Of a stretch of DNA of 64,000 nucleotides, positions 1 to 3,546 are shown one piece after another. This DNA is from Octopus vulgaris (lineage: Eukaryota), in the NCBI GenBank assembly GCA_951406725.2, contig OX597833.1:20274001-20338000 (forward strand), read 5' to 3'. The notes under the pieces were generated by a model. That model was not told where the DNA came from and searched no databases. It saw nothing but the letters and a program-made list of their open reading frames with translations. The first letter of the stretch is position 1; every line of letters starts with the position of its first letter. A program made the position numbers and the translations under genes.

Positions 1-1021
1 AGCAAGGGAGCCACCGCCATGTTGATCTTTTTGCACCCAACCTCGAGCAACTCTTTCTCTTTCGCCAGGAGGATTTCGACTTCCTCCTCCGTCCAGCAAC
101 CTCACGATGCCCGGCCCGTAGCCCGTGCGAGTTGAGCGCGCTCTTCCTTCTTGCGCGCTATTTCTTCTCTGTGAAGTTCAATCCTGCACCTGTTGGCATG
201 CACAGGATGCCGGTGCCTAAGATGCTGCGACAGTCCCGAAGGTGTTTGGAAGGACCGGCTACACCAGTCGCACTTGTGAGGCAGTTGCAGAGAGTCCAGT
301 GCCATTGGAACAGCGTTCCCCCTGCACTTCGCTACGTGACACCTAACTGAGTGGAGGTGGCCGCTTTCATGGCCGCAGCGACTACATCTGTAAACAGGCT
401 TACGGTTATGCCTGTTAAGCACATGAAGCCCCCATTCAATGGGGCTAGAGAAGTGACGAGGGCAAAGCGGGCACACTACGGAGATCAATGCACATGGAAT
501 CCCCAAGGCGAATGCCTCAGCCGACGGTTGGCAGGCCAGGTCACCATCAATAGCCTCCCCCGCGGGCGATCCGTCCTTGGAGATGCGAGGGGGAACGGAT
601 AGGGGAAGGCTGGTGAGAGCGTCATGGTCCGCCGCGAGTTGCTCGCCATGGAGAACCAACGTGTGGAGCGCGCATTCGAGGAAAAAGCGGCTTGGTTTAT
701 CCCTAAAAACGGTAAGTGACCAGATGCCACTTTCGGCTGACAAAGTCAGGGGGTCTACTTGATCACATCAAGGAGGGCGAGACCTCGCACCCGCCTTGGG
801 GGGAAGTAGCACTTCGCCACGGCATGGGCGAATCCCACGTCGCAGCTGACCCTGAGGCCCTTCCCGGGACCTCGAGGCCATCAGTTTAGCGGCGCCTGGC
901 TGCCGTATGAGAATATCGTTTGGTTCTAACATCATGGGTTTTCGGCAGTTTTCTCCATGAGTCCGAACCGATATTCCAGACAGACACTAGTACACCCCAA
1001 CCCCCAACGCACGCAGGGGCC
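1..1021 (-). mobile_element. 5' portion of an R2-like (RLE-class) non-LTR retrotransposon, continuing off the left edge; inactivated by an in-frame stop
   Basis: ORF 102..743(-) has three zinc fingers: CPLC..HVLNRH (CCHH), CSRC..HVAKC (CCHC) and CDWC..HLRHRH (CCHH). After TGA at 102-104 the same frame continues GCWTEEEVEILLAKEKELLEVGCKKINMAVAPL, a Myb-like start. Three ZF + Myb is the N-terminal layout of R2 clade-A proteins. The block is GC-rich and sharply distinct from the AT-rich host. RT and RLE domains lie outside the window. Confidence 0.8.
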
Positions 1022-1084
1022 GCCCCACCTTTGGAATTTTTCACTGCCCTCAGAGGGCAATGCCACCCACTTTGGGAATCACTG
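1022..1084 (-). mobile_element. Terminal fragment of a hAT-type MITE abutting the R2-like 5' end
   Basis: Minus strand reads cagtgattcccaaagtgggtggcattgccc..., the same terminus as the MITEs at 20833-21112 and 39988-40254. Confidence 0.7.
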
Positions 1085-1199
1085 GTTTAAAGAATGCATT
1101 TACACTTCTAACAAGAGCCCCAAAAACACTTCTTAATTGTTGGAGCAAAATAGTTGAGGATCTGAAGTGTCCTCTGATTGGCAACCAAGGAACAGGAAC

Positions 1200-1992: not shown

Positions 1993-3065
1993 TCACATGA
2001 CAGCATCTGTGTCTTTAAGCAGACTTTCGGTACCAAACTCTGCCAAGGTAGCAGAATGGGTGAACGTTTGTTGAGCATCTGTTGGCAGAGTTGCAGCTTG
2101 TATGGCAGGAGTGTCGGCCACTGCAGGCAATGCCACAGTTACTGGCTGTGCTTCAATAATGGTGATGGGTTGCAATGCCGATGTGTTAGCCGGCATCACA
2201 GAAGCTGCGGATGGGTACGCCGGGATGAGTTGGGCATGGATGGTAGTGCCATGCGAGTCTGTAGATTCTGTGAAGTGCACAACGTAATGGTCAATCACTG
2301 CATCTGTAGCTTTGGCCGACAGCTCGTTACCATTTACATTGACATTTATGTTACCTGAACTGTCTATGGAGGTAGCAGTTGGAATGAGCTGCTGGAGAGA
2401 GGTGTCAGAAGATGGCTGGTGAACAGTAGCTGCCTGAGCTAAGACTTGAGCCCCAGAAAGAGCAGTGGCCGTAACGGTTGTAGGATTAGTCTGTATGTCC
2501 AGTGCACCGGTCTTGTCAGAAATCCCATTCATGGCAGATGACGTGTCTAATACAATGGGTTCTGAATTCGGCAGTGTGTTGTTGTTGTTGTTGTTGCTGT
2601 TATTGTTGTTGGTAGTGTGATTGAATGCAACCTGCTGTACTATGCTGTTTTCAGTAGGCCGAGTGGTCACCCCTGATGTTGCGTTGCTTCGAGGACGTCC
2701 ACGTCTCTTCGGAGCCACTCCTTTCCCACTGTTTTCCTTGTTCAATGACTCAGAGGTCACAGTGATCATGCGTTTGCGAGGTCGACCCAGTTTCCGTCGG
2801 TTACGTGGCCGGAATATTTGTGGATCTGCTCCCAACTTCACCGGATGGCATTTGTGGTCGTGGAAAAGTTTGGGCCTGAAAAACCCACGACCACATTTCT
2901 GGCACTGGAATCTGTAATCTGCTTTGTGTCCCCTTTCGTGTTCCACCAAGTGAGGACGACGACTGAACCCTTTGCCACATTCCTTACATTTAAATGGTTT
3001 CACTCCACTATGAGTAATGATGTGGGCTTTCAGCTTATCTGGTCTGTTAAACTCTTTTGTACAAC
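1993..3065 (-). CDS. ZNF341: ZNF341-like, exon 13 (terminal): last C2H2/C2HC fingers, basic GRPR motifs, low-complexity tail
   Basis: Acceptor ttgcag|GT at 3065, phase 1. Encodes GCTKEFNRPDKLKAHIITHSGVKPFKCKECGKGFSRRPHLVEHERGH.., which matches the ZNF341 C-terminal fingers. Stop TGA ends at 1993. Confidence 0.93.
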
Positions 3066-3147
3066 CTGCAAAAGAAAATATATTGATGTGAGACATATAT
3101 TGAAGTCAATGATCAAATTTATATTGAAATGACAGATCAAATACAGG

Positions 3148-3345
3148 CTGAAGGGAGTGATCAAATATTGACTGAAGGGAGTGATCAAATATTGATTGAA
3201 GGGAGTGATCAAATATTGACTGAAGGGAGTGATCAAATATTGACTGAAGGGAGTGATCAAATATTGACTGAAGGGAGTGATCAAATATTGACTGAAGGGA
3301 GTGATCAAATATTGACTGAAGAGAGTGATCAAATATTGATTGAAG
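3148..3345. repeat. 24-bp minisatellite (ctgaagggagtgatcaaatattga) x ~8, in intron 12
   Basis: Directly visible tandem array; it accounts for the ORFs with SQYLITPF, ILTEGSDQ and SIFDHSLQ repeats. Confidence 0.95.
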
Positions 3346-3546
3346 GAGCTTTGACAGAAAAAAAAAATAAAGACAAAAACAAAACAAATGACTTAATGTT
3401 TAACCAAGTTAAACAAACAATCAATTAGTTAGTTGGATATTTAACCAATTGACTAATGATAAAGAAGTGGAATTGGATCAGTGTGTGTGTTAATAATATT
3501 GGTATAATGACTCTCCTTGACGCAACAAAATGAAAAATCTTCTCAC

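Follow-up and report, generated by a model that had tools for sequence, protein, structure and literature searches.

The window analysed here, 64,000 nucleotides of Octopus vulgaris DNA, opens within a dead, 5'-truncated R2 retrotransposon of lineage A that lies outside the ribosomal DNA (rDNA) and that most likely arose by a single off-target insertion from a family normally specific for 28S. Read on the minus strand, one frame at the left edge of the window carries CCHH, CCHC and CCHH zinc fingers, then a TGA, then the start of a Myb domain. The preliminary description had recognised this R2-type order of fingers, TGA and in-frame WTEEEV Myb, and both the frame and a match to R2 proteins in the PDB bear it out. 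The features of the element are as follows.

1..1026, minus strand: 5' part of R2, a lineage-A non-LTR retrotransposon, from the PDB alignment and a by-eye match to R2-1_OVu; it runs left past the window edge, and its start at the junction with a MITE is uncertain by a few bases (1022-1030)
768..770, minus strand: another in-frame TGA, preceding the fingers; R2-1_OVu has Arg here by eye
408..473, minus strand: ZnF3, CCHH, from the frame reading and the PDB alignment
324..386, minus strand: ZnF2, CCHC, from the frame reading and the PDB alignment; in organisms B and C the orthologous copies lack 12 nt here, at 357
207..272, minus strand: ZnF1, CCHH, from the frame reading and the PDB alignment
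102..104, minus strand: premature TGA between ZnF1 and Myb, in frame; Arg in most relatives, with no variant listed in any of the four sequencing runs
3..95, minus strand: first part of the Myb domain, with the WTEEEV start at 95, aligned to the R2 Myb; the window edge cuts off the remainder

We searched the PDB with a query of 166 aa in which X stood in place of the stop. The query aligned continuously, from ZnF3 through ZnF2 and ZnF1 to Myb, with three lineage-A R2 chains (9nl2, E 6.8e-15; 9dou, R2Tg, 1.1e-13; 9nl3, 1.2e-13), and the next-best match was a generic zinc finger (E 1.6e-6). About one third of the window copy's residues are identical to those of the three chains, which have the same finger-Myb order; they are intact proteins with reverse transcriptase (RT) and endonuclease, whereas the window holds neither domain. 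The three N-terminal fingers typical of lineage A, CCHH-CCHC-CCHH, are all present, and the visible first part of a Myb domain follows ZnF1, a feature that separates R2 from Utopia according to PMC13188248. Judged by its N-terminal sequence, the element is a derivative of R2 lineage A, of octopod origin. A Pfam search returned C2H2 matches only, all below threshold. The region 1-1026 also forms a GC-rich island, with a GC fraction of 0.45-0.67 per 100 bp against 0.16-0.41 just past 1100.

On its 5' side the element abuts a MITE, and beyond that lie unique sequence and a zinc-finger gene.

1028..1084, minus strand: MITE left end, 57 bp of a hAT-type MITE of 267-280 bp, terminal inverted repeat first, from comparison with complete copies in the window
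1085..1092, minus strand: 8-bp flank of the MITE end, likely half of a target duplication; positions 4-5 read TA, which both complete copies share in their left flanks
1993..3105, minus strand: open frame containing the final coding exon of a ZNF341-like C2H2 zinc-finger gene; same strand as R2, stop ~970 bp upstream of R2
20833..21112, plus strand: complete MITE reference copy, 280 bp, with terminal inverted repeats and an 8-bp duplication (7/8 match)
39988..40254, minus strand: second complete MITE copy, 267 bp, with terminal inverted repeats and an 8-bp duplication (7/8 match)

Both complete copies have the short terminal inverted repeats and 8-bp duplication of hAT-type MITEs, and they confirm that the 5' flank of R2 is the terminus of such an element, as had been proposed; the R2 locus shows the left end only. 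Insertion within the MITE, as had been proposed, is thus putative, since the other MITE half would fall to the left of the window. We take hAT to be the appropriate label for MITE ends of this kind. An Rfam search of the whole 64 kb at gathering thresholds found no rRNA and only a U6 gene, and four 10-nt motifs of the 28S target, allowed one mismatch, gave no match below position 3000. The visible 5' flank is thus a MITE end plus unique sequence with no 28S target site, and the earlier claim that the copy lies outside rDNA holds on the 5' side by both searches. Sequence on both sides of the R2-MITE junction is G-rich. The bases AAGG just before the junction were considered for their likeness to the 28S nick site; we drew no target consensus from them because similar bases occur in the MITE itself. 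The neighbouring gene had been named ZNF341, and the C2H2 gene is real, but the name is weakly supported (Atlas rank 6 among similar zinc-finger clusters).

To assess the locus beyond one assembly, we turned to sequencing runs. Contigs bridged the junction of R2, MITE and flank in 4/4 runs with 0-3 differences (four studies, three organism labels), a set in which one run may be the window's own source. Because all four runs, under three organism labels, bridge the junction, misassembly is ruled out. In X6, a DNA run, contig depth was 17.5 over both the flank and the element body (561-840), a hint that the window R2 sequence is single-copy there; contig depth is not copy number. The same run contains relatives ~88-90% alike, at contig depths of 20 to 91 compared with 17.5 for the window sequence. 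Their differences fall at third codon positions in 21/26 places (p 9e-7), and a by-eye comparison shows some residues at which they depart from R2-1_OVu as well.

The closest published relative of the window copy resides in 28S. Table S2 of PMC13188248 gives four octopod R2s (R2-1_OVu, R2-1_OSi, R2-1_ORu, and R2-1_ECi), and in all four rows 28S precedes the element and the canonical 28S continuation follows it. By eye, 127/166 residues of the window sequence are identical to R2-1_OVu, with no gaps; the best database protein in the pairwise set, P0152, matched at 85/164. R2-1_OVu and the window copy have the same finger-Myb array, and their leaders are recognisably alike, again by eye, from ~nt 258. 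In the same table R2-1_OVu and R2-1_OSi are flanked by 28S at both ends and have long ORFs, of 1276 and 1155 aa, whereas the window copy lies outside rDNA, is missing ~257 nt of leader, contains two stops, and shows a gap of four residues before the fingers. The preliminary description had suggested a retargeted or non-specific lineage. For the window's family this is unsupported, because R2-1_OVu and the three other octopod R2s have 28S on both sides. It had also named, as grounds for abandoning that suggestion, a one-off ectopic insertion with all other copies in 28S rDNA; the closest relative is indeed 28S-flanked, so the situation comes near to this, but the evidence covers only some of the other copies. 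In the same table, the nucleotide sequence listed for Sepia lycidas R2-1_SLy starts with bases of the downstream 28S target, a sign of captured 28S or of a target duplication at its 5' end.

Contrary to the earlier claim, the 5' end is not intact: compared by eye with R2-1_OVu, which 28S flanks, the element begins only at ~nt 258. A search for two conserved leader motifs found neither near the junction, and elsewhere in the window they match only at chance level (1 found against 0.98 expected; 2 found against 6.0 expected). The missing stretch includes motifs that the mollusc R2s of Table S2 in PMC13188248 have in common at their 5' ends. A complete leader with an HDV-like ribozyme, as a full-length R2 would have, was not present: an Rfam search of 600-1200 at E<=10 returned no ribozyme or other match. 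As PMC3774820 describes, the R2 5' end carries an HDV-like self-cleaving ribozyme. We presume that the stretch lost here would hold it. Truncation at the 5' end is given as the usual outcome of R2 reverse transcription on insertion in PMC13580325, and 5'-truncated R2 junctions typically show microhomologies of 1-5 nt in PMC2718515.

Record 15 of run X19, which matches 989-1026 only and has 211 unmatched letters upstream, was considered as a second non-rDNA 5' junction. This reading was dropped because R2-1_OVu shows that relatives have ~257 nt more leader. A short leader segment at window ~870-906 is common to higher-depth relatives in X6 and X19, and their upstream sequence differs, a sign of further R2 subfamilies.

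The copy is best read as an old, dead element. Its ORF is interrupted at 104-102 and at 770-768, unlike that of an active R2. The preliminary description mentioned one TGA; the stop at 104-102 is present, but the second had gone unmentioned. An origin of the first by CGA>TGA, as had been proposed, is plausible because several relatives have Arg where the TGA stands: R2-1_OVu (by eye), Argonauta P0002, and 3/4 O. vulgaris proteins covering the site; the fourth, P0152, has Lys. The orthologous copies carry extra damage: in organisms B and C the 12-nt deletion falls on residues 134-137, within ZnF2, and in run X6 one nucleotide is inserted at 509. They also show six in-frame substitutions, at codon positions 1/2/3 in the ratio 1/2/3, a small sample with no clear third-position bias.

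Further lineage-A sequences are present in octopods. HMMER gave 507 hits at E<=0.001, and among the best 150 of the 507, O. vulgaris and Argonauta hians proteins ranked at the top. Of the first ten proteins looked up, five come from O. vulgaris gene models that occupy five separate chromosome-scale scaffolds, and a cluster member brings in a sixth. Together P0001/P0153, P0003, P0151, P0009/P0152, and P0004 form a second O. vulgaris lineage-A subfamily (accessions include CAI9719783, CAI9744014, and CAI9736398), represented by N-terminal parts on five scaffolds of 84.0, 119.3, 182.4, 34.6, and 128.6 Mb. Its members are 80-96% identical to each other in the shared N-terminal stretch and about 50% identical to the window copy (47-53%, including Argonauta hians GAB1610529). 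The architecture of the subfamily and of GAB1610529 is that of the window copy. By eye the subfamily is unlike R2-1_OVu, and the one O. vulgaris entry of Table S2 in PMC13188248 does not match it. P0001 has its ZnF1-tail/Myb block repeated four times, and its accession is adjacent to that of P0153.

The RT-proximal part of P0151, a proxy for the window copy, fits lineage A best (R2Tg, E 9e-40; B. mori-type 8gh6, 1.7e-17; L1 ORF2, 6e-3) in a comparison set drawn up without NeSL, Utopia, HERO, or R4 outgroups. We built a quick N-terminal tree of 53 rows from 148 hits, chosen by RT-proximal match or label, most covering >=95 residues, and with R2-1_OVu left out. The window copy grouped weakly with octopod fragments (SH-aLRT 83), and no starred clade contained it. 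A word-index protein search for longer proteins gave no match, and further searches of that kind returned the query only and then one extra O. vulgaris fragment; all are weak negatives.

How might the copy have arisen? We favour an event in which an older subfamily related to R2-1_OVu would have started reverse transcription from a nick that it made at a non-28S site within a hAT MITE, the TPRT mechanism being established for R2. Synthesis of cDNA would have stopped ~257 nt short of the RNA 5' end and the product joined to the target, possibly via a few shared G-rich bases; the G-rich sequence at the junction is perhaps such a microhomology. Lacking the leader, the part in which R2 has its ribozyme, and away from rDNA co-transcription, the copy would yield no processed template. 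It would persist because dispersed sites escape rDNA turnover, and neutral decay would follow. Several observations weigh against this account. The copy differs from R2-1_OVu at 39/166 residues, and therefore its true parent would be a different, unsampled subfamily. With six orthologous substitutions, neutrality can be tested only weakly. The evidence comes from the 5' junction, whereas true TPRT would show at the 3' junction, outside the window. Finally, X6 holds the 88-90% relatives with third-position-biased differences, and lineage-A fragments on six chromosome-scale O. vulgaris scaffolds are many for rare accidents.

The last two points lend themselves to a different, and in our view unlikely, explanation: that octopus harbours relaxed, dispersed lineage-A R2 subfamilies that have lost specificity. 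The several related X6 copies with selection-like divergence and the second subfamily on five scaffolds would both fit, as would the silver-stained NORs on one chromosome pair reported for three other octopods (PMC6160780) and the precedents of specificity loss in PMC5035012 and PMC7650587. However, the window copy resembles the 28S-resident R2-1_OVu (127/166) far more than it does the dispersed subfamily (about 50%), the dispersed copies could sit in scattered rDNA pieces or duplications (P0001 has repeated blocks), and the NOR data come from other species. Moreover, present genome locations mislead on specificity, as loss rates differ inside and outside rDNA in the account of PMC13580325. 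Dispersed lineage-A copies may nonetheless be common in octopus. We entertain only tentatively, and as somewhat doubtful, the broader proposition that octopods have, besides the 28S-specific R2-1_OVu, at least one lineage-A subfamily inserting often outside rDNA. If so, the window copy, its 88-90% relatives, and the five-scaffold subfamily would be the footprint of relaxed R2s, and one genome would hold a natural pair of specific and relaxed three-finger R2s. Much less probable is an origin at the DNA level, in which an R2 was displaced by recombination or repair, or a longer insertion later lost its leader and part of the MITE. Only the left 57 bp of the MITE are visible, and the G-rich bases flanking the junction would suit a later deletion; yet 5' truncation is normal at R2 insertion and calls for no extra event, on the description in PMC13580325, and no 28S sequence accompanies the 5' side. 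We give almost no credence to an assembly artefact or a domesticated zinc-finger-Myb host gene. The window does start inside a repeat and the fingers are well preserved in its own allele, but the independent contigs across the junction largely refute an artefact, and two stops, the ZnF2 deletion, and a frameshift allele speak against domestication.

An off-target insertion, the account that we prefer, has parallels among known R2s. Extra-rDNA copies, often incomplete, are reported in 5/8 Drosophila species examined in PMC2718515, with canonical R2 in the same species, and the window copy is likewise outside 28S and incomplete. The Drosophila copies are 1-2% from rDNA copies, whereas 23% of residues separate the window copy from R2-1_OVu, and three organism labels share it. 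A non-rDNA flank is also found in R2NS-1_SMed and R2NS-1_CSi (PMC5035012) and in non-site-specific R2-like elements of cockroaches (PMC7650587). R2NS families as described in PMC5035012 are multi-copy, with young dispersed copies, some >98% identical to the consensus, and belong to clades D and C; the window copy is one old copy with a 28S-resident closest relative. Where an R2NS-type family would have several near-identical copies in unrelated flanks, the window sequence appears single-copy by contig depth, with relatives at 88-90%; where it would be a family without 28S copies, R2-1_OVu, a sister subfamily and not the exact parent, is in 28S. Hero, Dong, and CRE types are reported for cephalopods in PMC10294476, the available text of which names no true R2 outside rDNA. 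We found no report of an octopus non-rDNA R2 in a literature search whose scope excluded most subscription papers, Repbase, and supplement files 13-16 of PMC13188248.

The locus is an ordinary dead, 5'-truncated off-target copy of a published octopus R2 lineage. It is the fossil of an older octopus R2 subfamily, whose traces turnover of the rDNA would probably have removed, and it shows where a lineage-A R2 has inserted off target in nature. It supplies neither a functional nor a retargeted enzyme. Lineage A is the one that serves for gene insertion into rDNA. What merits pursuit is the second, dispersed O. vulgaris subfamily: if it is non-specific, comparison with R2-1_OVu would point to residues for 28S specificity.

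We noted several other features in and around the locus. R2 may lie in the 3' UTR of the neighbouring zinc-finger gene, being on the same strand with the stop ~970 bp upstream. One AATAAA occurs near 1664. The element and its unique flank (window 1-1198) are found together in runs X1 and X11, two small assemblies whose RNA origin is a guess. Between the zinc-finger gene and R2, a 450-bp imperfect inverted repeat at 1271-1723, ~80% self-complementary, is probably a palindromic MITE, and a tandem array of a ~24-bp unit lies at 3099-3346 between two zinc-finger exons. The U6 snRNA match (48369-48473, minus strand, 88.9 bits) is full-length and sits amid dispersed repeats, either as a gene or as a retrocopy. 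A 233-aa open frame at 41547-42248 on the minus strand presumably resembles the C-terminal part of a Penelope-like retroelement.
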